Virus record (IMG/VR): IMGVR_UViG_3300037467_000182
Span: 1-24,062 of that record
Length of the DNA stretch: 24,062 nt
Reading direction: 5' to 3' (one strand)
Source of the DNA: a virus
Lineage: Duplodnaviria; Caudoviricetes
Shown here: positions 693-17,560 of the stretch, piece after piece
Layout of the letters: every line of letters starts with the position of its first letter
Position numbering within the stretch: position 1 is the stretch's first letter
The notes under the pieces: model-generated
The model's input: the letters and a program-made list of their open reading frames with translations, nothing else
Told to the model about the DNA's origin: nothing
Database searches by the model: none
Made by a program: the position numbers and the translations under genes

Positions 693-711
693 CCCCCACA
701 AGGAGACCCGC

Positions 712-879
712 ATGAACGACCAGCGCACCCCGCTGCTCCGTCGCACGACGGCCATGACTGACGCGATGGTGAGCGCCTTCGAGCGCGCCGGCATCGACAC
801 CTCGGGGGCCACGCTCCCGGTCAAGACTGAGCCGACGTGGCGGGTCTCCCGCAGGGACAACAAGAGAGGCCGCCGTTGA
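712..879 (+). CDS. small basic hypothetical protein (55 aa), not in ORF track
   Basis: Strong SD AAGGAGA ending at 706, ATG 712, MNDQRTPLLRRTTAMTDAMVSAFERAGIDTSG...RRDNKRGRR. Its TGA overlaps the primase TTG (TTGA). Confidence 0.7.
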   Translation: MNDQRTPLLRRTTAMTDAMVSAFERAGIDTSGATLPVKTEPTWRVSRRDNKRGRR

Positions 880-2537: not shown

Positions 2538-3037
2538 TGGCTCACTACGACTGTAGCTGCTGCGGCGAGAGCATGGGTATCTCCCACGCTCACTGTCCTG
2601 AATGTCAGGCCGGACGCTGCCACCGAAACGCGGTCCCGGTCCCACCCCCGGCCCCCGAGGTCGAGGACGACGGCTTCGTGACCGTCCACGCCTCGCCTCC
2701 GATCATGCTCCCGCAGGGCGACGCGGAGCGCCTGGACTTCCCCATGTTCGACGGCCTGATGGCCTACTTCCCGAACGCTCTGGCGGAGGTCGCTCGCGTC
2801 TCGAAGCTCGGTAACGACCAGCACAATCCCGGCGAACCCATGCACTGGGCGCGGGACAAGTCGACCGACCATGAGAACAAGATCATGCGGCACCTCGCCG
2901 ACGTCGGAACCGTGGACCCGAAGGGGGTCCTCCACTCCGTCCGCCTCGCATGGCGGGCGCTCGCCCTCGCCCAAGAGGAAATCGAACGCCGCAACGGCCT
3001 CCCGCCGTCGCGCGCCTCCCGTAACCGCACCTTCTAG
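2537..3037 (+). CDS. putative dATP/dGTP diphosphohydrolase-domain (DUF5664-like) protein with Cys-rich N-terminus
   Basis: FPNALAEVARVSKLGNDQHNPGEPMHW...IMRHL...DPKGVLHSVRLAWRALA resembles this family pattern. N-terminal CSCC...CPEC. TAATG coupling to helicase. Confidence 0.65.
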   Translation: MAHYDCSCCGESMGISHAHCPECQAGRCHRNAVPVPPPAPEVEDDGFVTVHASPPIMLPQGDAERLDFPMFDGLMAYFPNALAEVARVSKLGNDQHNPGEPMHWARDKSTDHENKIMRHLADVGTVDPKGVLHSVRLAWRALALAQEEIERRNGLPPSRASRNRTF

Positions 3038-3047
3038 GAGCACCCGA

Positions 3048-3362
3048 ATGAACCTGAAGATCATCCGCCTGCGCGCCATGCAGGTCCTCGCCGACGTCCT
3101 CGGCTTCTTCGACCGTGGCGTCGACGGCGCCATCGATGCGTTCACCCGCGCTGACCGTCAGCTCGACGCCGTGAAGGCCAAGCTGGACGCTAAAATGTCC
3201 CGCGAGTTCGACTTGCAGGCAGCCAGCTACGATCGCCAGCAAGAGATCGCCGCCGCTGAGGAGGCTCGTCGCCTTGCGAGCTACGACCGCGTCACCTCGC
3301 TGTACGACAGCCGCCAGCGCGCCGCTTCCATCCAGCGCCGCATAGCGGAACTGCTGAAGTAA
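3048..3362 (+). CDS. hypothetical alpha-helical/coiled-coil protein (104 aa)
   Basis: SD AGGAG 3036-3040, ATG 3048 (MNLKIIRLRAMQ...). Ala/Arg/Gln-rich, helical-looking sequence. Confidence 0.75.
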   Translation: MNLKIIRLRAMQVLADVLGFFDRGVDGAIDAFTRADRQLDAVKAKLDAKMSREFDLQAASYDRQQEIAAAEEARRLASYDRVTSLYDSRQRAASIQRRIAELLK

Positions 3363-3544
3363 TGCTGGCCGTCCAGATTGGCGCCACCATGTGCGTGTTC
3401 GCCGCCACGGGCCACCTAGTGTGTTCGACGGTGGACAACGCCATCGGCGAGAGCACCCCGCTGACGTCGACCGTCGGTCTGTCGAGTGTTGCCATCGGCA
3501 TCCTCGGTATCGTGATCGCCGCTCTCGGCATCATCTGGAGCTAA
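3362..3544 (+). CDS. small membrane protein (60 aa)
   Basis: TAATG coupling. Hydrophobic N-terminus and C-terminal TM-like segment VGLSSVAIGILGIVIAALGIIW. Confidence 0.6.
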   Translation: MLAVQIGATMCVFAATGHLVCSTVDNAIGESTPLTSTVGLSSVAIGILGIVIAALGIIWS

Positions 3545-3558
3545 ACCAATCGTAGACC

Positions 3559-3715
3559 GGGGTGCGATCCGGCTGACCTGTGGAACGGGGCCACCCACAG
3601 TGAGAGTGACAAAACGCCCCTGACCTAATCATCCCCGCCGTGGCCCACAAACGAGCCGCGGATAACGGAGGGGAAAGCGCCCGTTCGGAGCGCCGGGTCC
3701 CTCCACCTTCCCGCG
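3559..3715 (+). promoter_or_regulatory. structured intergenic leader upstream of DNA polymerase
   Basis: Complementary segments GGGGTG/CGCCCC, CTGTGG/CCACAG, CGCGG/CCGCG and GGAGGGG/TCCCTCC, ending just before SD AGGAG. Confidence 0.45.
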
Positions 3716-3726
3716 CAGGAGCCTCA

Positions 3727-5715
3727 ATGAAAATCTTTGACGTGGAGACCGACGGTCTCCTCGACGAGCTGACGCGCGTCCACACGATGCACGTCCTCGA
3801 TAACGAGACCGGCGAGCGCCTGCGGTTCAACGATGGCAAGTTCGCCGACGGATCACCGGCGCCCCGCGACGGCTCGATCAGCGACGGCCTCATCATGCTC
3901 ATGGAGCAGGACGAGGTCTGCGGCCACAACATCATCAACTTCGACATCCCGGCCATCACGAAGGTCTACCCGTGGTTCCGCCTGAAGCTGAGCTGCGTCG
4001 CGCACGACACCATGCTCTACGCGCAGATGATTTGGCCGAACATCAAGCAGATCGACCAAGCTGCGGTTAAGACCCGGAAGCGTCCGGACGACTTCGGCAA
4101 GCGTGGCCTCATTGGTCGCCACTCGCTGGAGGCATGGGGCGTTCGCCTCGGTGTCCTGAAGCTCGACTACGACGGGCCGTGGGGCGCCTTCACCCAGGAG
4201 ATGGAGACCTACGCCGCACAAGACCCGGTCACGACGAAGGCCCTGTGGGACAAGTGCGTCGAGAAGAACTTCGGCGGCAACTCCGAAGAGAGCTTCCGAC
4301 TGGAGCACGACGTCGCCCGCATCATCGGCTTGCAGGAGAGGTTCGGCTTTGCCTTCAACCTCGCCGAGGCTGAGAAGCTGGAAGGCGTTCTCCGCGCCCG
4401 CCGCGCCGAGCTGTATGACAAGCTCACCGAGACCTTCGGGTGTTGGTACGAGCCGGAGCGAAAGTTCGGCAAGGCCGTCGAGTTCACGCCCAAGCGGAAC
4501 GATCGCAGCCGAGGCTACACTGCCGGCGACACCTTCACGAAGGTCAAGCTCGTCAGCTTCAACCCCGGCAGCCGCAAGCAAATCGCATCCCGACTGATTA
4601 AGCTCTACGGGTGGATACCCGTCGAGTTCACCGACAAGGGTGCGCCGAAGGTCGACGAAACCACGCTCGACCAGCTCGACCACATTCCCGCCGCGAAGCT
4701 GCTGATCGACTTCCTGACCGTTGAGAAGCGGCTCGGGCAGTTGGCCGATGGCGACAACGCATGGATCAAGAAGGTCCGCGCTGACGGCCGCATTCACGGC
4801 CGCGTCTCAACGCTAGGCGCCATCACCCGGCGCATGACGCACTGGGACCCGAACATGGCTCAGTGTCCCTCGCTTATCAACGCGAAGGGAGTGGTGCCTT
4901 ACGGCCGCGAGTGCCGGTCCCTGTTCATCGTCTCGAAGGGCAACCTCCTCTGCGGCTGCGACGCCGAAGGCTTAGAGCTGCGGATGCTCGCCCACTACAT
5001 GGCGAAGTTCGACAGCGGTTCCTACGGCGATACGGTCGTCAACGGGAAGAAGGAGGACGGCACCGACGTCCACACGGTCAATCAACACCTGATTGGCCTG
5101 AACTCCCGAAACTCCGCGAAGACGTGGATATACGCCTACCTCTACGGCGCTGGCCTGCTGAAGCTCGGCATGGTCATCTACGAGGACTTCGGCGGCAACC
5201 GGCGCGAAGCGTTCAACGCCAAGCACGAGGCCGGACCTGCCCGCGAGAAGGCAATCGCGCGCCTCGGCAAGAAGGCCAAGGAGAACGTCGAGGCGGGACT
5301 GCCCGCCCTCGGCAAGCTCCAAGAGCTGGTCAAGAAGCTGGCCGCACGAGGCTACCTGAAGACCCTCGACGGCGGACTGCTCAAGGTCCGCTCGGCGCAC
5401 TCGGCGCTCAACACGCTGCTGCAAGGCGGCGGCGCCATCGTGATGAAGAAGGCCCTAGTGATCCTGTTCGAGCGACTGCTCGCGGCAGGGTGGGAGCCTG
5501 ACCTTGTCACCGGCGAGCTGCGTCGCGGCAACGACGTGATCGGCTTCGTGGCGAACATCCACGACGAGTTCCAGATGGAGGTCCCTGAACACCTCGCCGA
5601 AGAGATCGGCGGGATGGGCAAGGATGCCATTCGGGATGCCGGCGTCGCCTTCAACCTACGCTGCCCTCTCGCAGGGTCCTTCGACAAGGGCCTGAACTGG
5701 GCTGACAGTCACTAG
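3727..5715 (+). CDS. DNA polymerase, family A (T7 gp5-like)
   Basis: ExoI FDVETDGL, ExoII GHNIINFDIPAI, ExoIII YAAQD, motif A DAEGLELR, motif B RNSAKTWIYAYLYGAG, motif C IHDEFQ. Start ATG 3727 with SD AGGAG 3717-3721. Confidence 0.97.
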   Translation: MKIFDVETDGLLDELTRVHTMHVLDNETGERLRFNDGKFADGSPAPRDGSISDGLIMLMEQDEVCGHNIINFDIPAITKVYPWFRLKLSCVAHDTMLYAQMIWPNIKQIDQAAVKTRKRPDDFGKRGLIGRHSLEAWGVRLGVLKLDYDGPWGAFTQEMETYAAQDPVTTKALWDKCVEKNFGGNSEESFRLEHDVARIIGLQERFGFAFNLAEAEKLEGVLRARRAELYDKLTETFGCWYEPERKFGKAVEFTPKRNDRSRGYTAGDTFTKVKLVSFNPGSRKQIASRLIKLYGWIPVEFTDKGAPKVDETTLDQLDHIPAAKLLIDFLTVEKRLGQLADGDNAWIKKVRADGRIHGRVSTLGAITRRMTHWDPNMAQCPSLINAKGVVPYGRECRSLFIVSKGNLLCGCDAEGLELRMLAHYMAKFDSGSYGDTVVNGKKEDGTDVHTVNQHLIGLNSRNSAKTWIYAYLYGAGLLKLGMVIYEDFGGNRREAFNAKHEAGPAREKAIARLGKKAKENVEAGLPALGKLQELVKKLAARGYLKTLDGGLLKVRSAHSALNTLLQGGGAIVMKKALVILFERLLAAGWEPDLVTGELRRGNDVIGFVANIHDEFQMEVPEHLAEEIGGMGKDAIRDAGVAFNLRCPLAGSFDKGLNWADSH

Positions 5716-5735
5716 TTCCACTTGGGAGAAATCCT

Positions 5736-6455
5736 ATCAACACGCCTAAACCCCGCATCCTGGTCCTCGACATCGAGACCAAGCCCACTCAAGCCTACGT
5801 GTGGCGGATGTTCGACGAGAACGTGGCGGCTGACCAGATTATCGCCCCCGGTGGTACTATCTGCGTCGGCGCGAAGTTCCTCGGAAAGCCTAAGGTCCAC
5901 ATGCTGTCCGACTGGAAGCATGGGCACGAGGGAATGCTTGAGGAGACCCACGCGCTCCTCTCGGAAGCCGACGCGGTCGTCACCTATAACGGCGACAAGT
6001 TCGACCTCCCGAACCTGCGCGGCGAGTTTGCCCTCGCAGGCATGTCGCTGCCCCCGCTGGTCCCGAGCATCGACGTCTACAAGACGGCTCGCGGCCTGCG
6101 CCTCGGCATTCACAAGCTCGGCTATGTCGGCACCCGTTTCGGGGTTGGCGCCAAGCTGACGCACGAGGGGTTCAACCTCTGGAAGTCCGTGATGAACGGC
6201 GACCCCAAGGCTCAGAAGCGCATGGAGCGCTACTGCGCTCAGGACGTCCGGCTGCTCGAAGGTCTCTACCTCCGGCTGCTTCCGTACATCCGCAATCACC
6301 CGCACCTGAACAACCAAGGCCGCGGCGCCTGCCCGAGCTGCGGCTCGATGCAGGTCCAGAGCAAGGGATCGCGCCGCACCCGCGCGTTCAAAATCCAGCG
6401 CCTCCACTGCCAGAACTGCGGCAGTTGGCACGACGGAACGAGGACCAAAATATGA
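5736..6455 (+). CDS. DEDD/RNase H-like 3'-5' exonuclease (YprB/RNase_H_2-like) with C-terminal Zn ribbon; probable ATC start
   Basis: In-frame upstream extension RILVLDIET (ExoI), VVTYNGDKFDLP (ExoII), YCAQDV (ExoIII), CPSCGS...CQNCG. SD GGGAGA 5724-5729. Confidence 0.85.
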   Translation: MNTPKPRILVLDIETKPTQAYVWRMFDENVAADQIIAPGGTICVGAKFLGKPKVHMLSDWKHGHEGMLEETHALLSEADAVVTYNGDKFDLPNLRGEFALAGMSLPPLVPSIDVYKTARGLRLGIHKLGYVGTRFGVGAKLTHEGFNLWKSVMNGDPKAQKRMERYCAQDVRLLEGLYLRLLPYIRNHPHLNNQGRGACPSCGSMQVQSKGSRRTRAFKIQRLHCQNCGSWHDGTRTKI

Positions 6456-6697
6456 GCCACTTCCTCGGCGACCTGTTCAAGGGCGTCGGCAACAAGGGAT
6501 GGGAACTCGCCCGCGTAAGCTGCGGGTGGGCCATTCTGTCCACCTCAGCCCTCGCCGGCTTCAAGCTGTTCCAAGGGCAGCCCCTCGCCATGAACGACTA
6601 CGCCGACGCGATGATGAAGGTCTTCGCCGGCAGTGCCCTGTTCATCGGAGCGAAGGACGTCGCGAAGGCCCACGCAGATAGCAAGGCTTCCACATGA
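6452..6697 (+). CDS. putative holin / small membrane protein
   Basis: ATGA overlap and AGGA SD. 81 aa with two moderately hydrophobic segments, directly upstream of the i-spanin. Function inferred mainly from position. Confidence 0.45.
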   Translation: MSHFLGDLFKGVGNKGWELARVSCGWAILSTSALAGFKLFQGQPLAMNDYADAMMKVFAGSALFIGAKDVAKAHADSKAST

Positions 6698-7113
6698 ACC
6701 TCCCGATCCTCCCACCGTGGGCCTCAGTGACCCTGAAGTTCGCCCCGTATGTCGCCATCGCGATCCTCGCCGGCCTCCTCTTCCTGTCACACGGGAAGGT
6801 GGAGAGCCTCGAAGCGAAGGTCTCGGCCCGCGACACGCAGGTCTCGGCACTGATCGAGGCGCGCGACTTCTTCAAGACGGCCGTCGACCAACGCGACACG
6901 CTCATCAACAGGCAGAACTCCAGCATCGACGCCCTGGCGCAAGCCTCGGTGGCCGACCGCACAGTCTACCTGAAGGGCCTCGAAGCGGCCCGCGTGGTCT
7001 CCGCCGACAACATGAAGGTGTCGACCAACCTGCTCGCGCTGAAGGCCCCCGACGGGGAGCTGGAGCAGTGTCGTGCAGCCCGTGACCTCTTGGAGCAGGA
7101 GCTTGTGAACTGA
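6694..7113 (+). CDS. putative i-spanin (Rz-like)
   Basis: Single N-terminal TM (YVAIAILAGLLFL), long heptad-like periplasmic region, C-terminal Cys. Confidence 0.65.
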   Translation: MNLPILPPWASVTLKFAPYVAIAILAGLLFLSHGKVESLEAKVSARDTQVSALIEARDFFKTAVDQRDTLINRQNSSIDALAQASVADRTVYLKGLEAARVVSADNMKVSTNLLALKAPDGELEQCRAARDLLEQELVN

Positions 7114-7217
7114 TGAAAGGCTGCGCTCTGATGCTGCTGTTCGCGGCTGTTGTCGTGGGAAGCATCGCCTACGAAGTCGTTAAGTTCGCCGCTTGGTGTC
7201 GAGTGGCGTTCGGATGA
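7113..7217 (+). CDS. 34-aa single-TM peptide, not in ORF track
   Basis: TGATG overlap upstream and ATGA overlap downstream. MKGCALMLLFAAVVVGSIAYEVVKFAAWCRVAFG. Confidence 0.6.
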   Translation: MKGCALMLLFAAVVVGSIAYEVVKFAAWCRVAFG

Positions 7218-7546
7218 CCCCCGCCCAAGCCATGCTCGCAGGGCGCCTCGCGATGCTCCGGAAGGACGTCGAAGAGGCCGCCCTGTCGCGGGCCACGGCC
7301 CGTATCATCTACCGCACCCCTCAAGGGGATCGCACCGTCTACCTCGACGCGCCCACCACCATTGCGGCGCTCGACGCAGCCCACCTGTCGCTCTCCGACC
7401 GGCTGCTCAAGCTAGGAGTTTCCGAACATGAGCATATCGCTCTCCCTGCGCCCGACCCCCGAGGCGCAGCTTCTCCTGATCGTTCTAGTGGTCGTGGCGT
7501 TCCTCGGCCTGACCGCCTGCCAAGGCCGCCCAAAGAGCCATCCTGA
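7214..7546 (+). CDS. hypothetical protein
   Basis: ATG 7214 coupled to the previous stop (MTPAQAMLAGRL...). The last ~40 codons overlap the o-spanin in another frame. Confidence 0.55.
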   Translation: MTPAQAMLAGRLAMLRKDVEEAALSRATARIIYRTPQGDRTVYLDAPTTIAALDAAHLSLSDRLLKLGVSEHEHIALPAPDPRGAASPDRSSGRGVPRPDRLPRPPKEPS

Positions 7547-7766
7547 GGTAGCCCCACCGGCGCCCGTTCAGGAGGTGAAGGTGGCCGTGCCGGTGCCCTG
7601 CAAGATCGAGCAGGTCGCGGAGAAGCCGCGGCCCTCTAAGCAGGCGCGGAAGGGTGACGACATCCACACGCTGACGAAGATCGCGCTGGCTGACCGCCGC
7701 GTCCTCCTAGCGGAGAACGGCGAGCTTAGGGCGGCGAACACCAGCCCCTGTCCGGGAGCGAAGTGA
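7428..7766 (+). CDS. putative o-spanin (Rz1-like outer-membrane lipoprotein)
   Basis: SD AGGAG, hydrophobic signal peptide, lipobox LTA-C, Pro-rich linker, EVKVAVPVPC motif and C-terminal helix with Cys. Confidence 0.8.
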   Translation: MSISLSLRPTPEAQLLLIVLVVVAFLGLTACQGRPKSHPEVAPPAPVQEVKVAVPVPCKIEQVAEKPRPSKQARKGDDIHTLTKIALADRRVLLAENGELRAANTSPCPGAK

Positions 7767-7975
7767 TGGCTAGGGCTTCCTATGTGTGGGTCCTGCGCGG
7801 CGCCTCGGGACGCCCGTTTGCGGCCTTCACGGTCAAGCACGAACTCCTGTCGGCAATCCAAAGATCGCACCCCGGCGACCGGAGAGACTGGACCGTGGTC
7901 CGTCTCTCGGACGGGAGCATCTCCTCCGTAGTCGATATCGGCTCGGCAGTTTCTTTCATGGAAGCGAACGCCTGA
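7766..7975 (+). CDS. hypothetical protein
   Basis: Coupled at both ends (GTGATG and TGATG), fills the gap in the gene chain. Start is 7763 or 7766. Confidence 0.65.
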   Translation: MARASYVWVLRGASGRPFAAFTVKHELLSAIQRSHPGDRRDWTVVRLSDGSISSVVDIGSAVSFMEANA

Positions 7976-8253
7976 TGCAGACCCGAACCGACAGCTTCAT
8001 GGAGGCTGCCACCAACACAGCCATCGGCCTAGCGGTGTCCACCGTTGCCAACGCGACGCTCACCCCGTGGGTCCTCGGACACCCGATCTCGGTCCACGAG
8101 AATGTGGTCCTGTCGGCGGGCTTCACGGTGATCTCGATTGGCCGGTCCTACCTCCTGCGCCGAGCATTCAACGGCAAGTCGGTGTGGCAGGCCATCAAGG
8201 GCACCCGCCTGACCTCGCTGGAGAGGGCACACCTTCGGAGACTAGCCCGATGA
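7975..8253 (+). CDS. conserved phage two-TM membrane protein (DUF7220-like)
   Basis: MQTRTDSFMEAATNTAIG...FTVISIGRSYLLRRAFN matches a recalled phage family pattern. ATG 7975 overlaps the previous stop. Confidence 0.65.
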   Translation: MQTRTDSFMEAATNTAIGLAVSTVANATLTPWVLGHPISVHENVVLSAGFTVISIGRSYLLRRAFNGKSVWQAIKGTRLTSLERAHLRRLAR

Positions 8254-8408
8254 GCCGCCTCGCCGCCTTCCTCGCCGGCTTCACGCTGGCGGCGGTGTCG
8301 CCTGTGGCAGCCGCCAAGGTCGAACTGCTGTGCCGCCCGGTCCTAAAGCCGGAGGTCAACTGCGTCCCGAACTACAACCCTAAGCCGCCGGAGTGCCATA
8401 TCGCATGA
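8250..8408 (+). CDS. small exported Cys/Pro-rich peptide (52 aa)
   Basis: ATGA overlaps at both ends. Signal-peptide-like MSRLAAFLAGFTLAAVSPVAAA followed by a 30-aa part with 3 Cys. Confidence 0.6.
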   Translation: MSRLAAFLAGFTLAAVSPVAAAKVELLCRPVLKPEVNCVPNYNPKPPECHIA

Positions 8409-9238
8409 GCCGCACTCTCCTCATCGACGCCGACCTGATTGCCTACCGAGCGACTGCTGCTCTCCAGCAGACGATCGACTGGAACGGGGACGGGTCGTGC
8501 GTCTCTGTGGACGGGCGCCTGGACGAGGCCAAGGCTGAAGCCAAGCGTGTCGTCGAGTGGTTCATGGACGACCTCAAGGCGGACGACCTCGTCATCTGTC
8601 TGTCGGACGACGTGCAGAACTTCCGCAAGCGGATCGACCCAACCTACAAGCAGCTCCGCACCGCGACAGAGCGCCCGGTCCATCTGTACGACCTGAAGGA
8701 GTGGATGGGCGAGAAGTGGTCTTCGCGGCTGATCGCGACCTTCGAGGCGGACGATGTCATGGGCATCATGTCCACCGAGCCGCACACCAGCGAGAGGGTC
8801 ATTGTCAGCAACGACAAGGATATGAAGACGATCCCCGGCCTCCTATGCCGGCCCGACTACGAACGCCGCAAGCTCAACGTGGTCGAGATCACGGAAGAGG
8901 CGGCCGATCGCTTCCATCTGTGGCAGACCCTCACCGGCGACACCTGCGACGGCTATGACGGGTGCCCCGGCGTGGGCGGTGAGCGAGCGGAGCCGATCCT
9001 CGACGGATACGGCTTCCAGCGATACGACCACACGATCACCAAAGGGAAGCGCAAGGGCGAGATCGACGTCCGCTGGCCGCGCTTCCAGTTCGACGGCCCT
9101 TGGCCGGCCATTGTGTCGGCCTACGAGAAGGCCGGACTGACCGAGGCAGACGCCATCCGGCAGGCCCGCTTGGCCTTCATCCTGCGGTCGTCCCACTATG
9201 TCGACGGAAGGCGCCTCGACTGGAACCCTCCGAAGTAA
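8405..9238 (+). CDS. 5'-3' exonuclease (T7 gp6-like)
   Basis: LLIDADLIAY, NFRKRIDPTYK, FEADDVMGI, SNDKDMKTIPG, GDTCDGYDGCPGVG, QARLAFILR. Confidence 0.95.
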   Translation: MSRTLLIDADLIAYRATAALQQTIDWNGDGSCVSVDGRLDEAKAEAKRVVEWFMDDLKADDLVICLSDDVQNFRKRIDPTYKQLRTATERPVHLYDLKEWMGEKWSSRLIATFEADDVMGIMSTEPHTSERVIVSNDKDMKTIPGLLCRPDYERRKLNVVEITEEAADRFHLWQTLTGDTCDGYDGCPGVGGERAEPILDGYGFQRYDHTITKGKRKGEIDVRWPRFQFDGPWPAIVSAYEKAGLTEADAIRQARLAFILRSSHYVDGRRLDWNPPK

Positions 9239-9273
9239 AACGGGAGTTTTCCGCCACTCTCCCTAAAAAGGCC

Positions 9274-9293
9274 AATTAGGGCCACCCCTTGGT
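9274..9293 (+). promoter_or_regulatory. candidate phage RNA polymerase promoter (AATTAGGGCCACCCCTT|GG, +1 about 9291)
   Basis: 17-nt element followed by GG at the replication/structural boundary. The first 9 nt equal the K11-type promoter start AATTAGGGC as recalled. It lacks the TATA melting box. Confidence 0.45.
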
Positions 9294-9380
9294 ACACCGA
9301 ACCTTTAGGTTCGGGACCAGTCTCCTTCGGTTGCTCCTTTGGGGCCGCTGCGAGCTTCGGCTCCGGCGGCCCTATTTTTT
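9291..9380 (+). ncRNA. candidate small RNA / attenuated leader with two anti-SD motifs
   Basis: 5' hairpin CCGAACC-TTTA-GGTTCGG, linker GTCTCCTTCGGTTGCTCCTTT, then a terminator hairpin. Confidence 0.4.
9342..9380 (+). terminator. intrinsic terminator
   Basis: GGGCCGCTG-C-GAGC-TTCG-GCTC-CGGCGGCCC followed by TATTTTTT. Confidence 0.85.
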
Positions 9381-9393
9381 CATGTGAGGCCCC

Positions 9394-9594
9394 GTGATCC
9401 TATTCCCCGACAGCGCCTCTGCGCTGGTCGACGAACTCGACCGAATGTTCCCGGAGCGGCCCGCAACGCCGAAGACCTCCCGCGAGGAAGACCTCGCCCA
9501 CGGCGCCAAGCGCGAGCTGATCGGCTTCCTCAAGCACTGGAGGGAGACCAGCCGCACGGCGTCCCCACCCACCGTGCGCCGCTCTCGGCGTTAG
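9394..9594 (+). CDS. small hypothetical protein preceding the virion genes
   Basis: SD GAGG and GTG start. LVDELDRMFPER...GAKRELIGFL resembles small proteins found before the portal in T7-like phages. Confidence 0.7.
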   Translation: MILFPDSASALVDELDRMFPERPATPKTSREEDLAHGAKRELIGFLKHWRETSRTASPPTVRRSRR

Positions 9595-9611
9595 CCTGAG
9601 GAGCCGCCACC

Positions 9612-9824
9612 TTGTGTGTGCCTAAGCCCCCGAAAATCCAGCCGACGGACCCGGAAGCGAAGCAGCCGGACCCGGCCATCATCCGCAACCCGTACCTCGA
9701 CGGAGCGAGCGACTTCGCGATCGCGCGGATGGGTCGGTCTCAGCTCCGCATCAATCCCGGCGCCGCGCGCGTCGCGCTGCCACCGTCCGCGCCGCGGGCA
9801 CCCGCCGCGCTACGGATCGGATAA
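9612..9824 (+). CDS. virion/assembly protein (T7 gp6.7-like)
   Basis: SD GAGGAG and TTG start. MCVPKPPKI N-terminus, GRSQLRI motif, position before the portal. Confidence 0.65.
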   Translation: MCVPKPPKIQPTDPEAKQPDPAIIRNPYLDGASDFAIARMGRSQLRINPGAARVALPPSAPRAPAALRIG

Positions 9825-9830
9825 CCCAAC

Positions 9831-11390
9831 ATGGCCTCTCCACCGCTCTCGGCTACGCCGATGGCGAAGGCGCGTTACACGCAGCTCACTGGTGCCCGTT
9901 CAACGGCCCTGACACGCGCCCGCCAGAACTCGTCGCTGACCATCCCCGGCCTAGTCCCTGAGGACGGCCAGGACGGCAACACCACATTCTCGCAGCCCTA
10001 CCAGAGCCTCGGCGCCCGCGCCGTGAACAACCTCGCGGCATGGCTGCTCGTCACCCTATTCCCGCCCGACCAATACTTCTTCCGCCTGAACATCGACGAA
10101 GATACAGCGGAAGAACTCGGCTCGGGCTTGGCGGACGCCAAGACTGCCTTGAACCGCATTTCCGGCAAGGCGCAGCTCGTTATCGAAACGAGCGCCTCGC
10201 GTCCCGTCTTCATGGAGACCCTTCGTCACCTCGCGGTGGCTGGCAACGCTCTCCTCTACTTCCCGCCCGACGGGACCCCGCCGCGTATGTACCGGCTCGA
10301 TCAGTATGTCGTTCTGCGGGACAACCGCGGGCAACTGCTCGAAGCGGTCATCCACGAGCAGGTGTACCCCTCGACGCTCGCGGAGGAAATCCGCACCGCC
10401 GTCGGCATTCAGCCCGACTCCGGCGGAGGCACTACGGAGAAGATGGTCGACCTGTACACGCACATTAAGCGCGTGGACGACAACGTCGAGCACTACCAAG
10501 AGATCAGCGGCAAGTTGGTCCCCGGCTCGGACGGCAAGTCGCCGGCTGATAAGTCAGGCTGGCTCGCGCTGCGTTGGCAGACGGTCCCCGGTTCGGACTA
10601 CGGCCGCGCTCACGTCTCCGAGTACCTTGGCGACCTTCTCTCCCTAGAGGACATATCGAAGGCGATCGTTCAGTTCGCCTACGCAGCCTCCCGCATCGTT
10701 CACCTTGTGAACCCGAACTCGATGACCGACGTCGACGCGCTAAACAGCGCTGAGACCGGCGACTTCATCAGCGGCCACACGGACGACGTGGGTACGCTTC
10801 AGCTCGAAAAGGGTCAGGACTTCTCGGTCGTTCGGCAGGTAGCCGAGACCATCGAGCTTCGCCTGAGCCACGCCTTCATGCTCCAGTCCGGCACCGTCCG
10901 CGACGCAGAGCGCGTCACCGCGGAGGAAATCCGCGCGATGGCGGAGGAGCTGGAGAACGTCCTCGGCGGCGTCTACACGGTCCTCTCGGCGGAGTTCCAG
11001 CTCCCGCTCGTCAACCGTCTCCTCTACATCCTCGAACGCGGCGGCAAAGCTCCCAAGCTTCCGGCGTCCGTTCAGCCGATGATTGTCACCGGCTTCGAGG
11101 CGATGGGGCGGAACCACAGTGCGAACAAGCTTCGCGCGTGGATGAGCGACATGAGCGGCATCTACGGGCCGCAAGTCCTACAGCAAATCACCGACCCCAA
11201 TGAGGTCGGCAAGCGTCTCGGCGATAGCTACGGCATCGAGGCGATGGACCAGCTCCTCAAGGCACCGGAAGTGCAACAGCAGGAGCAGCAGCAGGGCGCC
11301 ATGCAGCAAGCCGCAGTGTCGGCCGCGCCGCATATCGCGAAGGGTGTCATCGACGCCGCCGCGAAGAATGCCCAACAACCCACGGAGTAA
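9831..11390 (+). CDS. head-tail connector (portal, T7 gp8-like)
   Basis: PYQSLGARAVNNLA, LAVAGNALLY, DYGRAHVSEYLGDL, VRDAERVTAEEIR, LENVLGGVYTVLSAEFQLPLV. An alternative start lies at 9861. Confidence 0.97.
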   Translation: MASPPLSATPMAKARYTQLTGARSTALTRARQNSSLTIPGLVPEDGQDGNTTFSQPYQSLGARAVNNLAAWLLVTLFPPDQYFFRLNIDEDTAEELGSGLADAKTALNRISGKAQLVIETSASRPVFMETLRHLAVAGNALLYFPPDGTPPRMYRLDQYVVLRDNRGQLLEAVIHEQVYPSTLAEEIRTAVGIQPDSGGGTTEKMVDLYTHIKRVDDNVEHYQEISGKLVPGSDGKSPADKSGWLALRWQTVPGSDYGRAHVSEYLGDLLSLEDISKAIVQFAYAASRIVHLVNPNSMTDVDALNSAETGDFISGHTDDVGTLQLEKGQDFSVVRQVAETIELRLSHAFMLQSGTVRDAERVTAEEIRAMAEELENVLGGVYTVLSAEFQLPLVNRLLYILERGGKAPKLPASVQPMIVTGFEAMGRNHSANKLRAWMSDMSGIYGPQVLQQITDPNEVGKRLGDSYGIEAMDQLLKAPEVQQQEQQQGAMQQAAVSAAPHIAKGVIDAAAKNAQQPTE

Positions 11391-11393
11391 TCC

Positions 11394-11585
11394 TTGAGCA
11401 AGTCCAATAGCAACCCGGCCCCTGAGGCCACCGCAGAAGCCCCGGCCCCGACGCCGAGCGGCATCCAGATCGAGACCCGTTTCGAGATCGTCGACAACAC
11501 TGCCGCCGAAGTAGTCGCTCCCCGCGCTGCTGAGGAAAGCGAGCGCAAGCTCGACAACGGCATGACTGTGGTGGACTACGTCTAA
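11394..11585 (+). CDS. small acidic hypothetical protein between portal and scaffold
   Basis: SD GGAG and TTG start, TAATG coupling to the scaffold gene. Confidence 0.65.
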   Translation: MSKSNSNPAPEATAEAPAPTPSGIQIETRFEIVDNTAAEVVAPRAAEESERKLDNGMTVVDYV

Positions 11586-12484
11586 TGGCTGACGCAACCG
11601 AACAGCCAGCGGCGACAGAGACGCCGGCAGTTGAGCTGAATGCCCAAGAGCAGGCCGCCGTTGAGGTGGGCCAGCGCGGCTTCAGCGAGCCTACGAACGT
11701 CAACACGCCGGCCCCAAGCGGTCCGCAGCGCCCCGAAGGGGTGCCGGAGCAGTTCTGGAAGGACGGCAAGGTCGACGTCGAGGGTCTAGCCAAGAGCTAC
11801 GGCGAGCTGCGGTCCAAAATGGACAGCAAGTCGACCGAAGAGGCCCCGGCGAACAAGGAGGAAACTCCTCCCGTCGACGCTACCGGCAAGATCAAGCCTG
11901 AAGAGAAGAAGGAAGAGGTCGCCGAAGGCGAGCCAACTCCTCTCCAGACGGCGATGGAAGCCGCCCGCACCCAGTGGGCTGAGACGCAGGAAGTCTCCGA
12001 CGAGACAGTCGCGCAGCTTGAAGCTGCCGGCATCCCGAAGGACGTCTTCAGTCTCTACCTAGAAGGTCTCAAGGCGCAGACCGCACAGCTCGTCAGCTCG
12101 ATCCACGAGATCGCAGGTGGCAAGGAGCAGTACGAAGCGGCCACGGCCTGGGCAGCGAAGACGCTGAAGGCCGACGAGGTCGCCGCGTTCAACGACGCTC
12201 TCGACAACCCGACACTCCGCGAGACCGCCATCACGGGCCTTATGGCTCGCTACCAGAAGGCGATCCCGTCAGAAGGACGACAAGTGACCCCAACCGATAT
12301 GCCCGCCGCTGGCAGCGACGTGTTCGCTTCGCGTGACGAGTTAGTCGCCGCGCAGAAGGACCCGCGCTACGCCACCGACGCGAAGTATCGCGAAGAGGTC
12401 GCGCAGAAGCTGGCCCGCTCGCAGGCTGGAGGCTTCCAAGCCTTCGCCCGCCCGCAGTTCGGTCGGCAGATACTGTCCAGCTAA
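11585..12484 (+). CDS. capsid assembly scaffolding protein (T7 gp9-like)
   Basis: Acidic protein with RPEGVPEQFW..LAKSYGEL, AGGKEQY..WA and DPRYATDAKYREEVAQKL, located between portal and capsid. Confidence 0.92.
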   Translation: MADATEQPAATETPAVELNAQEQAAVEVGQRGFSEPTNVNTPAPSGPQRPEGVPEQFWKDGKVDVEGLAKSYGELRSKMDSKSTEEAPANKEETPPVDATGKIKPEEKKEEVAEGEPTPLQTAMEAARTQWAETQEVSDETVAQLEAAGIPKDVFSLYLEGLKAQTAQLVSSIHEIAGGKEQYEAATAWAAKTLKADEVAAFNDALDNPTLRETAITGLMARYQKAIPSEGRQVTPTDMPAAGSDVFASRDELVAAQKDPRYATDAKYREEVAQKLARSQAGGFQAFARPQFGRQILSS

Positions 12485-12489
12485 ATAGA

Positions 12490-12745
12490 ACCCCCTCGGC
12501 CTCTCAATGAAGCACACTGAGGGGGTCTTCTTTCCCCCGACGTGACGTCCGGTCGACGGACTTAGGCGTCACAATGGGAGCCTCCCGCATACCCGCCGAC
12601 GGGCGGCGCGGAAGGCACAGTGCCAAGGGTCGCTTTTACCCTTCTCCAGACGCTCTCAAAGACAACCCGACGAACGTCCTGCGGCCCCCGAGGGGACAAC
12701 CGCCGGCGTGGGCCTTCGATGATCGACTGATCGAAACCCCACACC
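12490..12745 (+). promoter_or_regulatory. multi-hairpin non-coding leader of the major capsid gene
   Basis: At least six consecutive inverted repeats in a 286-nt intergenic region. Confidence 0.55.
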
Positions 12746-12770
12746 AAAACCCAATCTGAAAGTTAGAGAA

Positions 12771-13760
12771 GTGGCAAATTCCACTCCGTCGCGTCCCGGC
12801 GCGAACCTGCTCGGCGCCGATCCGCGCGAGCTGATGCTCGACCTGTTTGGTGGCGAAGTCATCACGGCCTTCGAGACCGCGACGATCCTCCGCGACAAGC
12901 ACCAAACGAAGACGCTTGCCAAGGGCAAGTCGTTCAAGTTCCCGGCTATCTGGAAAGCCGGCGGCGGTTATCACACGCCGGGTCAGGAAATCCTTGGCCG
13001 CCAGATCACCCACACCGAGCTGACCGTCGATCCCGACGACAAGCTGGTGTCGGACGTATTCGTTGCGGACATCGACGAGCTGCTGAACCACTACGACGTG
13101 CGTCAGCCGTACACGAAGGAACTCGGTGAGTTCCTCGCGCGCCACTACGACGCGAACGTCCTCCGCACGATCCTCCTCGCCTCGCGCGGTCCTGCGCTGT
13201 TCACCGGCGACCAGGGCGGCTCGGCCGTTGTGGACGCTCTGTTCGCGACCGACGGTTCCAAGCTGCTCGACGGCATCAGCGCCTCGAAGCAGGTCATGGA
13301 CGAGAAGGACGTCCCGGTTAACTCCATGCCGGTCCACGCCCTGTTCAAGCCCGCTCAGTGGTATCTGATGGCGCGCTCGGACAAGAACCTGAACCGCGAT
13401 TACAACGGCGGTAGTGCCGATGTCCGCCGGCAGTCGCTCACGACTGTCGACGAAATCAATATCTACAAGTCGAATATCGCGGCCGAAGTCTTCGGCGTCG
13501 ACAACCGCGCGGCCCCGTACAACGACAGCTCGAACGAGAAGTTCATCCCGTCGGTGTACCGCGGCAGCTTCGGCACCTCGGTTGGTGCCATCTGGACCCC
13601 GATGGCGGCCTGCTCAGCAATCGTGCAGGACGTTGGCTTCCAGATCGTCGATCAGCCGGAGAAGCAGGGCACCCTCCTGCTCGCCCGTATGATGGTCGGC
13701 ACCCGTCAGCTCCGCACCAAGTGTGCAGTCGAGCTGCGGACTGGCGCCATCCCGGCGTAA
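12771..13760 (+). CDS. major capsid protein (T7 gp10-like)
   Basis: LMLDLFGGEVITAF, GKSFKFP, YHTPGQEI, DIDELLNHYDVRQPYTKELGEFLA. GTG start. Confidence 0.97.
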   Translation: MANSTPSRPGANLLGADPRELMLDLFGGEVITAFETATILRDKHQTKTLAKGKSFKFPAIWKAGGGYHTPGQEILGRQITHTELTVDPDDKLVSDVFVADIDELLNHYDVRQPYTKELGEFLARHYDANVLRTILLASRGPALFTGDQGGSAVVDALFATDGSKLLDGISASKQVMDEKDVPVNSMPVHALFKPAQWYLMARSDKNLNRDYNGGSADVRRQSLTTVDEINIYKSNIAAEVFGVDNRAAPYNDSSNEKFIPSVYRGSFGTSVGAIWTPMAACSAIVQDVGFQIVDQPEKQGTLLLARMMVGTRQLRTKCAVELRTGAIPA

Positions 13761-13770
13761 CCAGCCCTTT

Positions 13771-13811
13771 GAGGGGCCTCCCGTTTCTGACGGGGGGCCT
13801 CTCTATTTTTT
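13771..13811 (+). terminator. T-phi-like terminator after capsid gene
   Basis: GAGGGGCCTCCCGT-TTCTG-ACGGGGGGCCTCTC followed by TATTTTTT, same position as T7 T-phi. Confidence 0.88.
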
Positions 13812-13823
13812 CAAGGAGCCGCC

Positions 13824-14423
13824 ATGCGCGTTCTCGAACACACGACGCTCCTCGAAGCGGTCAACACCATCCTCTCCACTGTCGGCAACGCCCCGGTGTC
13901 GAGCGTGGATGGTGCAGGGATCGAGGACGCCGACATCGCTCTCCGGCTCGTCACTGAGCTTACCCGCCGAGTTTGCCTCGGCTCATTCGACTGGAACACG
14001 GACAGCGATTATCCGCTGGCCCCCGATCCGGACGGCTACATCAGCCTCCCCCTCGGTGCCCTTACAGTCGACCCGCAGGCGACCACTCAGAAGCTCGTCG
14101 TGCGCCGCAATCCGAACAACGAGAAACTCGGCCTGTGGGACAAGTCCAACCACACCTTCAAGTTCTCCGAGGCTGTCCCCTGCGAAGTCACGTGGGGCTT
14201 CCCGTTTGAGGACCTGCCGGAGATCGCGCGAGACTTCATCGTGCTGTCCGCAGGGCGGACCTTCCAGAAGCGCTTCGTTGGCTCTCAGGTGCTCGACCGC
14301 TATTCGGCCGAGGACGTCGCCAGCTCGTGGGCTTCGCTCCAGCGCACCGAGCTGAAGTCGCGCGACTACAACCTGTTCCGCGACAACCCCTCGATGGCCC
14401 GCGTCAACAACAGGAACTACTAA
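13824..14423 (+). CDS. tail tubular protein A (T7 gp11-like)
   Basis: LEAVNTILSTVGNAPVSS, FDWNT, FEDLPEIARDFI...GRTFQ. SD AAGGAG. Confidence 0.93.
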   Translation: MRVLEHTTLLEAVNTILSTVGNAPVSSVDGAGIEDADIALRLVTELTRRVCLGSFDWNTDSDYPLAPDPDGYISLPLGALTVDPQATTQKLVVRRNPNNEKLGLWDKSNHTFKFSEAVPCEVTWGFPFEDLPEIARDFIVLSAGRTFQKRFVGSQVLDRYSAEDVASSWASLQRTELKSRDYNLFRDNPSMARVNNRNY

Positions 14424-16615
14424 TGAGCGTCCTGTCGACGCGGACACTTCCGCAGCTATTCAATGGCGTATCGCGCCAGCCCCCGATCCTCCGCTCGCTC
14501 GACCAGACGGAAGACGAGCTGAACTCGTGGGCGGCGGTGTCTGCCGGCGTCGGCAAACGCCCGCCTACGGAACACATAACGAAGCTCGCCAGCTCGATCG
14601 GAGCGGACGCTTTCGTCCACACGATCAACCGCGACACGACTGAGCGCTACGTCGTCATCATTGACGGCGGCACCATTAAGGTAGTCGGGTTCGACGGCGT
14701 CGAGCGCACCGTGAACACACCAGGCGGGACGGACTACCTCTTCGGGGGCGAGTACACCGCAGTCACGGTGGCGGACTACACCTTCATCGTGAACCGCAGC
14801 CAGCCCGTAGGCATGAAGCAGTTGGTGGTTGGCGACCCTTCGCCCGACACCGTTGCCCCTCCGACCTACGTGAGGAAGATCACCCGCGACCCGCGCTACG
14901 CCGATGGCTACTCGATCGATACGCTGATCGAGGCTGGCGACGAAGACAGCTACGTTCCCAACACGAACTACGGCACGTCTTCGATCACCGGCCGCGTGGC
15001 ATCCGTGGAGAAGCTCCCCGAGACGGCCGCCGACGGCGCCATCTATGAAGTTCAGGGGTCAGACTATCTGCCCTCGACGAGCTTCTACGTGGTCCGCAAC
15101 GGAGCCGTGTGGGACGAGACGGTTCGCCCCGGCCTGACCAACGCGATCGACGAAGCGACGATGCCGTACTGCCTCATCCGTGAGGGCGACGGGACGTTCA
15201 CCTTCGCGCCCTTCTCATGGGCGCCGCGCCGCGTTGGCGACGAGAAGACCAACCCGCTGCCGACCTTCGTTGGCCGCACGGTGCGCGACGTGTTCTTCTA
15301 TCAGAACCGCCTCGCGTTCCTGGTCGACGAGAACGTCGTCCTCTCCTGCGCGGGCGACTTCGGAAACTTCTGGAGGAACACCGTTCTGGACGCCATCGAC
15401 AGCGATGTCGTGGACGTCGCGGTGACGACGACGCAGGTCTCGATCCTTCAACACGCGATCCTGTTCAACGACGGGGCGCTGTTGTTCGCGGACCAGACGC
15501 AGTTCTCCATGTCGAATGGCGAGAGCGGCGTCACGCCGGCCTCAATGTCCATTCAGCCGGTGACGCACTACACCGTCAATAAGGAAGCGAAGCCAGTCGC
15601 GCTCGGCACGGAAGTCTACTTCTGTGGCGAAGCCTCGGGCCGGTCCGTCTTCTACGAGTACAGCCGCCTTCAGGACGCCGAGAGCACTACCGCCGCGGAC
15701 ATCACGGCGCACGTGCCGGGGTTGATCCCCGGTGGCATCAAGAAGCTTTGTGGCGGGCCTCGCTCGCTGTTCACCTTCGACGGCACCACTGACGCCTTCT
15801 GCTACCAGCTCTACTGGAACGGCAACGAGAAGCTCATGTCCGCATGGCGCCCGTGGTCGTTCTTCGGGAACGTCCTTAGCGCCTCCGTGCTGGACGATCA
15901 TCTCTATCTGGTGATCGAGTACAGCGACGGGGCCTATCTCGAAAAGATGGACCTGAGCGACGGAGCGCACCCGGATAACCAGCCCAAGCAGGTCTATCTG
16001 GACCGCCGCGTGTCGCTGGTGGGAACCTACGACGCGGTCTCCGATCGGACGACCTTCGTCCTCCCCTACGAGGTCCCTGTGGACCAGCGGGGGCAGGTGG
16101 ACGTGGTGTGGGGCACTGGCTCAGCCACTCCACACCAGCGGACGAACCCTGAGCTGATCGCGTGGACGGACCTGAAGACCCTGTCGGTCCCCGGCAACTT
16201 GGCCGGAACGACGTCCATCGGGCTTCGCTACAGCTTCTTCATCGAGCTGTCTCAGCAGTTCCCTGCGGACTACCAAGGCCGCCCGCTCACGTCGGGCCGG
16301 CTCCAGCTCCGCACGATCTCCGTTCGCTATACGGAAAGCGGCTACTTCACGGTCGAGGTGTACCCCTACGGGAGAGCACCGTCGGCCGATCTAGAAGCCA
16401 CCTTCCCGAAGCGAGTGGTGGAGTTCCGTGGCAACGTCCTCGGCTCCAGCTCCGCGATCCTGGGCGCCCCGGCATACGCCAGCGGCAGCCACCGCGCGTC
16501 GCTCACGGGGGACAGCCGCAAGGTCGTCATCCGGCTCGCCAACGACAGCTACATGGCCTCGACCTTCTCCTCGGCGGAGTGGGAAGGTCTCTACAACTCA
16601 AGGGCTATGGCTTAA
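14423..16615 (+). CDS. tail tubular protein B (T7 gp12-like nozzle)
   Basis: LFNGVSRQP, KRPPT, TVADYTFIVNR, RRVGDEKTNPLPTFVG, FFYQNRL, DITAHVP, SAEWEG. Start ATG 14423 (TAATG). Confidence 0.95.
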   Translation: MSVLSTRTLPQLFNGVSRQPPILRSLDQTEDELNSWAAVSAGVGKRPPTEHITKLASSIGADAFVHTINRDTTERYVVIIDGGTIKVVGFDGVERTVNTPGGTDYLFGGEYTAVTVADYTFIVNRSQPVGMKQLVVGDPSPDTVAPPTYVRKITRDPRYADGYSIDTLIEAGDEDSYVPNTNYGTSSITGRVASVEKLPETAADGAIYEVQGSDYLPSTSFYVVRNGAVWDETVRPGLTNAIDEATMPYCLIREGDGTFTFAPFSWAPRRVGDEKTNPLPTFVGRTVRDVFFYQNRLAFLVDENVVLSCAGDFGNFWRNTVLDAIDSDVVDVAVTTTQVSILQHAILFNDGALLFADQTQFSMSNGESGVTPASMSIQPVTHYTVNKEAKPVALGTEVYFCGEASGRSVFYEYSRLQDAESTTAADITAHVPGLIPGGIKKLCGGPRSLFTFDGTTDAFCYQLYWNGNEKLMSAWRPWSFFGNVLSASVLDDHLYLVIEYSDGAYLEKMDLSDGAHPDNQPKQVYLDRRVSLVGTYDAVSDRTTFVLPYEVPVDQRGQVDVVWGTGSATPHQRTNPELIAWTDLKTLSVPGNLAGTTSIGLRYSFFIELSQQFPADYQGRPLTSGRLQLRTISVRYTESGYFTVEVYPYGRAPSADLEATFPKRVVEFRGNVLGSSSAILGAPAYASGSHRASLTGDSRKVVIRLANDSYMASTFSSAEWEGLYNSRAMA

Positions 16616-17094
16616 TGATCTCAGTTCACGACCTCCACCGTGTCCCTACCGATACGGTGGGGGCGTGGGCTAGACACGTTGCCCTCAACCTTCGCCAGCA
16701 AGATCGCGACGAGCTTGAGGCCGCCCACCAAGGCGACCCTCGGTCATCGATCGCACTCTCCATTATGATGTCCGCCCGAGCCTTCGCAGTGCTCGATCGG
16801 CAGGACGTCCCCGTGTGTCTCTTCGGAGCTGCCCCGCATCCGCTACCGGGTGTCGGCGTGGCATGGCTCCTCGGCACCGACGGCCTCTTCCGGGAGGCCC
16901 TCCCCATCGCTCGCGCGTCCAAGCAGAGGCTAGAGGAATTGCAGCAGCAGTTCCCGCTCCTCTGGAACTACGTCGACGAGCGCAACACCGTATCCATCAG
17001 GTGGCTCCGCTGGATGGGCTTTAAGGCCCACAGCGTGAAGGAGACAGTCTCCGGCCACCCCTTCCGCATATTCGCAAGGACCGCAAATGTGTGA
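16615..17094 (+). CDS. T7 gp13-like internal virion protein A (acetyltransferase-like fold)
   Basis: LRQQDRDELEA, GVAWLLGTD, LWNYVDERNTVSIRWLRWMGF. Start ATG 16615. Confidence 0.85.
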   Translation: MISVHDLHRVPTDTVGAWARHVALNLRQQDRDELEAAHQGDPRSSIALSIMMSARAFAVLDRQDVPVCLFGAAPHPLPGVGVAWLLGTDGLFREALPIARASKQRLEELQQQFPLLWNYVDERNTVSIRWLRWMGFKAHSVKETVSGHPFRIFARTANV

Positions 17095-17557
17095 TCCCAT
17101 AACGGCCTCGGTCATCGTCGGGGTGACGATGGTTGCCTCAACCGCGGCGGGTATCGTCACTCAGAACCACGCAGCAAAGGTTCAGGAGAAGGCGATCCGT
17201 CAGCAGACGAAGGTCGCCAACGACGAAGCCCGCGCTGAAGCTACCGGCGAATTGTTCGACAACATGCGGGCCGCTCGACGAGAGGCGGGACGAACCCGCG
17301 CGACTGCCGGCGAAGCTGGCCTGTCGCTCGATAGCGGCTCCGTCGAGACGCTCCTGCTGGACAGCGCAATGCAGTCCGAGCTGAAGAACGACCGGACCCT
17401 CGCCAACCTTGAGAGCCGGCACAACTCGAACGTCTCGGAAGCGAACTCGATGCTGTCGCGCATCCAGCACGATAACTGGCTCACTGGTGGGCTGAAGCTC
17501 GCCGCCGCAGGCGCCCAGGCAATGTCCGGCGTAAGCTCGGCAAAGGCAGGATCATAA
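17087..17557 (+). CDS. internal virion protein B (T7 gp14-like)
   Basis: MCDP N-terminus followed by a hydrophobic stretch, AGEAGLSLDSGSV, and gene position. Confidence 0.82.
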   Translation: MCDPITASVIVGVTMVASTAAGIVTQNHAAKVQEKAIRQQTKVANDEARAEATGELFDNMRAARREAGRTRATAGEAGLSLDSGSVETLLLDSAMQSELKNDRTLANLESRHNSNVSEANSMLSRIQHDNWLTGGLKLAAAGAQAMSGVSSAKAGS

Positions 17558-17560
17558 GCA

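Follow-up and report, generated by a model that had tools for sequence, protein, structure and literature searches.

A predicted late small RNA of T7-like phages with complementarity to the phages' own early and middle ribosome-binding sites

We found that the boundary between the replication and structural genes of a T7-like phage holds a compact RNA unit, made up of a late promoter, a 5' hairpin, a CU-rich anti-Shine-Dalgarno (anti-SD) linker and an intrinsic terminator, and that across related phages this linker matches the ribosome-binding sites (RBSs) of the same phage's early and middle genes better than those of other phages. Judged by sequence comparison, this is a real, conserved and uncatalogued phage RNA unit, and it probably encodes an antisense RNA that is made late, acts in trans and dampens the phage's own earlier genes.

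The window, by which we mean the whole 24,062-nt stretch of DNA analysed (IMG/VR record IMGVR_UViG_3300037467_000182, positions 1-24,062), covers the middle and late regions of a T7-like (Autographiviridae) phage genome. Its genes run in the order RusA, amidase, primase/helicase, DNA polymerase, exonuclease, two small ORFs, portal, scaffold, capsid and tail genes; the RNA polymerase (RNAP) gene and the early region are absent from it, and no overlapping contig was found to extend the genome upstream. The last middle gene is a T7 gp6-like exonuclease (8405-9238, + strand; phrog_107, E 1.7e-56), and the first late ORF (9394-9594, + strand, 66 aa; phrog_4970, E 7e-4, family of 28 members) is presumably gp6.7-like, a label taken from its position. 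Within the replication module, a separate DNA polymerase exonuclease-like gene (phrog_403) lies at 5799-6455, and small membrane- or lipoprotein-like ORFs, possibly lysis genes, lie at 6694-7766. Among named phages, Caulobacter phage S2B and the record 'jiawei' came nearest; each encodes an integrase as well as an RNA polymerase. Close prophages were found in Novosphingobium, Sphingomonas, Chakrabartia, Caulobacter and Phenylobacterium records. Portal identity of 65-75% grouped the window with sphingomonad-type phages, and by this grouping its host is presumably sphingomonad-type. The record L006 (OR464703.1), titled 'Mycobacterium phage jiawei', shows synteny to S2B and has the Caulobacter-type element, and its host label may be wrong.

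All motifs listed in the first-pass annotation of this DNA were found at their positions. A predicted promoter of the phage RNAP type (9274-9290, + strand, 17 nt) places +1 at G9291, and the predicted small RNA of ~90 nt extends from there to the U tract (9291-9380, + strand). This RNA folded at -46.4 kcal/mol (z -5.55), an energy equalled by 0 of 200 shuffles, and its structure comprised a 5' hairpin, then a CU-rich linker that is partly open, and lastly a terminator capped by UUCG. The 5' hairpin (9291-9318, + strand; loop UUUA) is likely a 5'-end stabiliser; its closing stem, annotated as TGGT/ACCA, does pair, but with +1 at G9291 the first T is untranscribed and the stem becomes GGU/ACC. 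Most relatives also have a 5' stem, of variable sequence. The linker carries seed 1 (GTCTCCTT, 9320-9327, + strand), an anti-SD plus anti-spacer motif, and seed 2 (GCTCCTTT, 9333-9340, + strand); it had been called unpaired, which is only partly so (P unpaired 0.59), and the family median for the seed core was 0.77. The terminator (9341-9380, + strand; -27.0 kcal/mol, 10 contiguous pairs) consists of a C-UUCG-G capped GC hairpin at 9341-9373 and six T at 9375-9380, and was not picked up by a simple terminator scan of the window. At the sequence level its own promoter and intrinsic terminator delimit a non-coding unit within the 50-300 nt of trans-acting sRNAs. Rfam covariance models gave no match over 9274-9380 at E up to 10 and 0 matches at 11 related loci at E up to 1, and no description of the element was found in the openly accessible literature.

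Relatives were gathered via exonuclease and portal anchors. Before counting we left out three pattern matches that had no exonuclease (L261, L264, L267), two that had neither exonuclease nor portal (L263, L265), and the duplicates L255 and L306. The promoter-hairpin-linker-terminator layout was present in 36 distinct T7-like phages and prophages of Caulobacter- and Sphingomonas-type bacteria, and searching 401 whole genomes from each of two host orders contributed one prophage. An automated survey for a promoter-like motif, terminator and anti-SD, whose strict rule skips variants visible by eye, recovered 14 of 15 loci at portal identity of at least 60%, 10 of 19 at 48-60% and 0 of 115 below 48%.

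T7 has a class III promoter after gene 6 and a terminator after the capsid gene. In all 36 relatives the 17-nt motif occupied the same position and was followed by a purine-rich start, with T at -14 in 36/36 and A at -16 in 35/36. Because the window lacks the RNAP region and holds one copy of the motif, the identity of the promoter rests on these relatives. In complete genomes (S2B, G004, G011, G020 and others), the motif of each phage recurred, exactly or nearly so, ahead of the RNAP gene and just behind it: copies matching at 17/17 positions were found in S2B, G004 and G020 and, in reverse orientation, in G011 and G016, and near copies in most complete genomes. Such a 17-nt motif, repeated round the RNAP gene and followed by a purine-rich start, is the arrangement of T7-like phage RNAP promoters, and it fits the phage-specific promoter pattern mapped in LUZ100 and LUZ19 as given in the accessible text of those studies (PMC10134795; PMC10914365). 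The element shares its place at the replication/structure boundary and its 17-bp geometry with the T7 post-gene-6 promoter and with LUZ100 phi6. Unlike the element clade, whose terminator lies ~60-130 nt after +1, LUZ100 is without such a unit by annotation: in the accessible description, an ORF follows phi6 within ~35 nt with no terminator annotated there, and a separate promoter serves the capsid region (PMC10134795), whereas no further forward promoter was found in the element clade. A scan of window positions 1-20000 for sigma-70 promoters returned 0 sites. Reverse-strand copies of the phage promoter near the right genome end of G006, G011, G014, G016 and G340, ~20-28 kb downstream of the element, resemble LUZ19 P001 as described in part of PMC10914365. 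A Novosphingobium prophage (L091:10817-10880) carries promoter and 5' hairpin in tandem duplicate, 47 nt apart.

When 17 genomes were scanned with a weight matrix, no credible forward promoter was seen downstream of the element; the three weak matches each agreed with the phage's own motif at no more than 8/12 positions. The element promoter, together with read-in from middle promoters, must therefore feed the whole structural module, and so the terminator must be passed part of the time. Being downstream of the terminator, the ORF at 9394-9594 also needs this read-through. The terminator itself was a constant feature: a GC hairpin of -18 to -49 kcal/mol was present in 36/36 relatives, at least five T occurred in the 8 nt after it in 29/36, and the predicted RNAs measured 79-144 nt (median 96). 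Its design resembled that of the post-capsid terminator of the same phages. In the window the latter lies at 13771-13810 and repeats the GC-stem plus TATTTTTT design of 9341-9380; from a single promoter, the tail genes must pass both. The stems kept their pairing with letters changed in the relatives, in keeping with what the first-pass annotation had expected of a structured RNA. MAFFT/RNAalifold, which copes poorly with the variable-length RNAs of this family, gave compensatory changes at 7 of 10 pairs in the sphingomonad set and 2 of 13 in the Caulobacter set; family pair-type counts were selected for pairing and do not amount to a covariation test.

Some variants depart from this plan. In five loci (L013, L010, L019, L179, L309) the linker anti-SD is absent or weak and a TTCCCT-type pyrimidine tract lies in the 3' hairpin loop; this subgroup stood outside the seed tests. 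In the distant proviruses G822 and G823 the same promoter position transcribes one or three tRNA genes, and the units end in a hairpin with a CU motif in its loop, an arrangement that fits a dedicated non-coding unit. At L352:15338-15740 and L354:15790-16420, distant proviruses hold tRNA-Asn, or tRNA-Pro/Asn/Met, between the late promoter and the CU-loop hairpin.

The CU-rich anti-SD motif proved to be conserved, as anticipated: CTCC or TCCT occurred in 30/36 linkers (absent in 6/36), and mean linker pairing to the SD 8-mer exceeded that of 1000/1000 shuffles. GGTTCT(C/T)TCC was nearly invariant in the 12 Caulobacter-type RNAs, with variable flanks, and sphingomonad-type seeds were variable. 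Long linker complements at gene starts of the same phage were first revealed by an exact-match scan. Each linker was then set against the -22..+5 windows of all phages, with row and column effects removed, using the 18 of the 36 phages that had enough genes on both sides; gene starts were called, with 32/45 annotated starts recovered in S2B and 39/44 in jiawei. At early/middle RBSs the longest perfect complement favoured the own phage (z -5.6/-5.8, p 2e-5, n=18), and so did duplex energy (p 0.001). Late RBSs (p 0.16-0.21) and coding windows (p 0.83-0.98) showed no own-versus-foreign effect. This result gives specific support, on the level of sequence, to the earlier suggestion that the RNA dampens middle genes.

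Because linker limits had been hand-set after the matches were seen, the test was rerun with a blind fixed 28-nt window, which gave the same own-phage result. Whole-RNA energies with accessibility gave p 0.018, 0.0016 and 0.0002 for the top 1, 3 and 5 (n=20). The signal persisted without the three strongest genomes (p 0.0017) and without the six strongest (p 0.035), and seven orientation and position controls reached at most one third of the effect, with borderline values for the reversed linker (p 0.014), the post-scaffold window (p 0.014-0.047) and the sense linker (p 0.054). When sister pairs were swapped, 7/10 were positive (p 0.012), with p 0.5 at late genes. The sphingomonad-type subgroup was significant by the perfect-match metric (p 0.001-0.005) and not by energy metrics (p 0.15-0.38). 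Four genomes (G005, G010, G012, G016) showed no own preference; G005 has a 10-nt own match at an RBS that the start calls missed. Among new genomes, own RBSs ranked 1 of 20 for G822 and G823, with one tie and with a window that included the loop seed and was chosen by eye, and 9 of 20 for G821, whose best match was on a late gene.

Counts of individual matches showed the same class restriction. Own matches of at least 8 nt were found at 30 of 452 early, RNAP and middle genes (8.8 expected) and at 3 of 315 late genes (4.4 expected); by class, they numbered 7/57 early (1.1 expected), 2/16 RNAP (0.5) and 21/379 middle (7.2), and 30 of the 33 cover an SD-like core. Start windows, which make up 2.9% of sequence, contained 13 of the 20 own 10-mer complements. 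S2B has an 11-nt perfect match on its RNAP start, and jiawei has perfect matches of 16, 14, 12 and 11 nt on four genes. Of 30 linkers, 12 carried an anti-start codon at the distance typical of an RBS (7.3 expected, p 0.037). No target family had more than three matches, which rules out one conserved ortholog as the target; the RNAP gene is likewise ruled out as a universal target, with its variable RBS and matches of at least 8 nt in 2/16 genomes.

Four RBSs in the window had been listed as targets, and all four were confirmed as complements. The best candidate is the RBS of ORF 712 (700-707, + strand; 55 aa, after the amidase), an 8-nt complement of seed 1 that is not significant alone. Seed 2 has 6-7-nt complements at the RBS of ORF 3048 (3036-3042, + strand; 7 nt, second-best energy), weakly at that of the DNA polymerase (start 3727; 3717-3722, + strand; 6 nt) and at that of tail tube A (13813-13819, + strand; 7 nt, best energy in the window). 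Tail tube A, one of the four, is a late gene, and its match goes against a strictly middle-gene rule. Window RBS complements measured 8, 7, 7, 7 and 6 nt; they are present, but do not go beyond the effect of the anti-SD core (flank-shuffle p 0.113). The accessible seed with beyond-chance target complementarity of a trans-acting sRNA is seen at family level. The window's own rank was 4-6 of 18.

These data bear on a simpler reading, that the unit is an ordinary late leader whose promoter drives the structural operon, whose terminator trims read-through from the host or middle genes (in the prophage state, for example) and sets dosage, and whose short RNA is a by-product with a CU-rich spacer as filler. 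The lambda 6S RNA originates from pR'-tR'. Pseudomonas phages make 5'UTR-derived short RNAs by premature termination, and short RNAs of this kind without known function are described as common in phages in the accessible text of PMC10914365; as in these cases, the late promoter of the element is followed by a terminator that would yield a short RNA plus a read-through mRNA. A leader role is required anyway, this being the only forward promoter found for the structural module, the terminator shares its design with the post-capsid one, and the window taken alone shows no specific pairing. However, the Pseudomonas and lambda RNAs are, in the sources as far as accessible, without assigned function or seed, whereas the phage element has a seed with matched targets. 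We consider the by-product reading unlikely, as it leaves unexplained both the confinement of own-phage complementarity to early/middle RBSs and the 11-16-nt perfect matches and anti-SD content above shuffles.

The linker could instead act in cis as an attenuator that sets late read-through by pairing either with the RNA's 5' end or with the terminator's G-rich 5' arm. In terminator-free folds the 5' arm does pair upstream in most RNAs, in the Caulobacter-type consensus GGAGCC pairs with GGUUCU, and the invariant GGTTCT can pair with the RNA's own 5' end. Yet terminator folds won by 13.9-25.1 kcal/mol in 36/36 RNAs, leaving no antiterminator fold that is competitive in energy; the 5'-end pairing contains invariant G-U pairs with no compensatory change, and the seed is kept in L011, L315 and L307 despite a 5' end paired elsewhere. 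Pairing of the linker with the first downstream late RBS was ruled out (own mean 4.0 vs 4.2, p 0.93). On this balance, cis attenuation is quite improbable.

The first-pass annotation had also named host mRNAs as possible targets, and a real anti-SD sRNA could mainly hit these, as a translational host shut-off, or serve as an Hfq sponge like VpdS. An anti-SD core can pair with many host RBSs, as accessible accounts of AbcR and SisA illustrate (PMC8844928, PMC12559287), and the Caulobacter-type seed is more constant than any single phage target. Host searches by exact pattern gave this claim no support: the 13-mer seed-plus-ATG site occurred once in 5 host genomes, within the prophage, and the 9-mer plus start occurred 10 times in 3 hosts, 3 of the 10 in the prophage; of the other 7 sites, 2 open long ORFs, with no shared gene evident. 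No conserved host target was evident by exact pattern, and own-phage specificity would go unexplained, which makes a mainly host-directed RNA quite improbable. As the searches covered exact patterns, broad, weak host targeting may occur, and it would be compatible with the explanation we favour, an antisense RNA against the phage's own earlier genes.

Two further readings concern the DNA strand and RNA processing. The linker could serve a small reverse-strand gene as its RBS, as the excess of anti-start codons at RBS spacing might suggest; reverse ORFs, however, spanned 3 to 91 codons, had no peptide in common and were absent in the window and many others, which ruled out a reverse-strand micro-ORF. 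Alternatively, the hairpins could form an RNase III processing site. T7 reportedly has one after the equivalent promoter, and in a few cases the 3' hairpin is long, reaching up to 92 nt; against this, a U-rich tail follows 29/36 hairpins. We regard this pair of readings as barely credible. None of the rival readings explains the own-phage, class-restricted match.

The nearest bacterial parallels are the alphaproteobacterial anti-SD sRNAs SisA-D/alpha-r8 (PMC12559287) and AbcR1/2 alpha-r15 with NfeR1 (PMC8844928). Going by the accessible parts of these papers, the element shares with them a weak or small 5' hairpin, a single-stranded CU-rich anti-SD seed, a Rho-independent terminator and a predicted repression of many mRNAs at the RBS, and with AbcR two seeds in tandem. 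Unlike them, it is phage-encoded, has a phage-RNAP promoter and lacks an Rfam match; and in contrast to their fixed 8-10-mer, the phage seed varies and tracks the phage's own RBS style, the predicted targets being its own genes. It is not a member of either family as there described: AbcR/alpha-r15 carries aSD1 CUCCUCCC in the 5' hairpin loop and aSD2 UUCCCCUC between stems, whereas the window RNA has the loop UUUA and different seeds, and the layout resembles SisA-D/alpha-r8 with the 10-mer UUUCCUCCCU absent from the window RNA. The cuckoo/RSs0680 RNAs also have a CU-rich anti-SD motif and an alphaproteobacterial setting, but the accessible description defines them by 2-4 adjacent hairpins, each with CCUCCUCCC in its loop (PMC4615179), a motif absent from the window RNA; unlike in cuckoo, the phage seed lies mostly between hairpins, and the seeds of the window RNA lie in the linker.

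Phage-made sRNAs offer a second comparison. PreS and VpdS are made by host RNAP. Like lambda OOP, aQ, P22 sar, PreS and VpdS, which tune phage development, the element would be a short phage-made RNA regulating translation during development (PMC12197685, as accessible). OOP, aQ and sar are cis-antisense to one gene, and PreS and VpdS act on host mRNAs or Hfq; in the accessible text of that review, none of the phage sRNAs is late, made by phage RNAP, acting in trans and aimed at a class of the phage's own RBSs.

We propose that phage RNAP would start at G9291, at a promoter identified from its repeats in the relatives and presumed active. Part of the transcripts would stop at 9380 and the rest would read on into the structural module, as suggested by the absence of a further forward promoter copy downstream in 17 genomes, with the terminator either leaky or antiterminated. 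An abundant ~90-nt RNA would likely be a product of this late unit. Its 5' hairpin and terminator are predicted to protect the RNA and to display the 15-35-nt CU-rich linker, and the U-tail makes help from Hfq plausible. At several early/middle genes the linker is complementary to the SD and the spacer, and in some cases to the start codon as well, and it may pair there; such targets would include ssb, the small genes that follow the amidase and, in S2B, the RNAP gene. Paired early/middle mRNAs would be translated less as the structural genes come on, and late messages, capsid above all, mostly have no matching site and would escape.

GGAG was found at 0/23 capsid starts, which were filtered for correct N-termini and are homologous and so not independent, vs 217/614 upstream genes. 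The scaffold-capsid gap (window 12485-12770; 286 nt, -110 kcal/mol) holds a structured leader conserved in nearly all relatives, with blocks GACAACC/GATAACC and CCTTGAGG followed by an A/C-rich run and a capsid start without GGAG; Rfam gave no match over this gap. Possibly the leader is an SD-independent translation element that lets the capsid escape the sRNA. L020 and L307 carry 4.6-4.8-kb insertions with large unrelated ORFs in this gap and keep the conserved capsid leader.

T7-like phages serve as the textbook example of gene timing by promoters and by lysozyme acting on the phage polymerase. To our knowledge, the question of what ends the translation of long-lived earlier mRNAs at late times has no settled answer, and we found nothing relevant in the literature on T7 class II shut-off. 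In T7-like phages, lysozyme inhibits the phage polymerase, according to the accessible text of PMC10134795. We see an even chance that this temperate T7-like clade times its middle-to-late switch by a class-specific antisense RNA made from a single late promoter and co-evolved with the phage's own early/middle RBSs, with negative feedback on RNAP in S2B and with late leaders escaping. As S2B is a cultured phage whose host is a laboratory Caulobacter strain, and has the 11-nt match on its RNAP start, the element is directly testable there. With a late RNA whose seed follows the RBSs of the phage's own earlier genes, this timing would gain a post-transcriptional layer; such an RNA would also give a rare case of sRNA-target co-evolution visible in sequence across genomes, and would offer an orthogonal promoter, seed and RBS module for Caulobacter/Sphingomonas engineering. 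If true, these phages would themselves encode a switch that turns off translation of an entire temporal class of genes.
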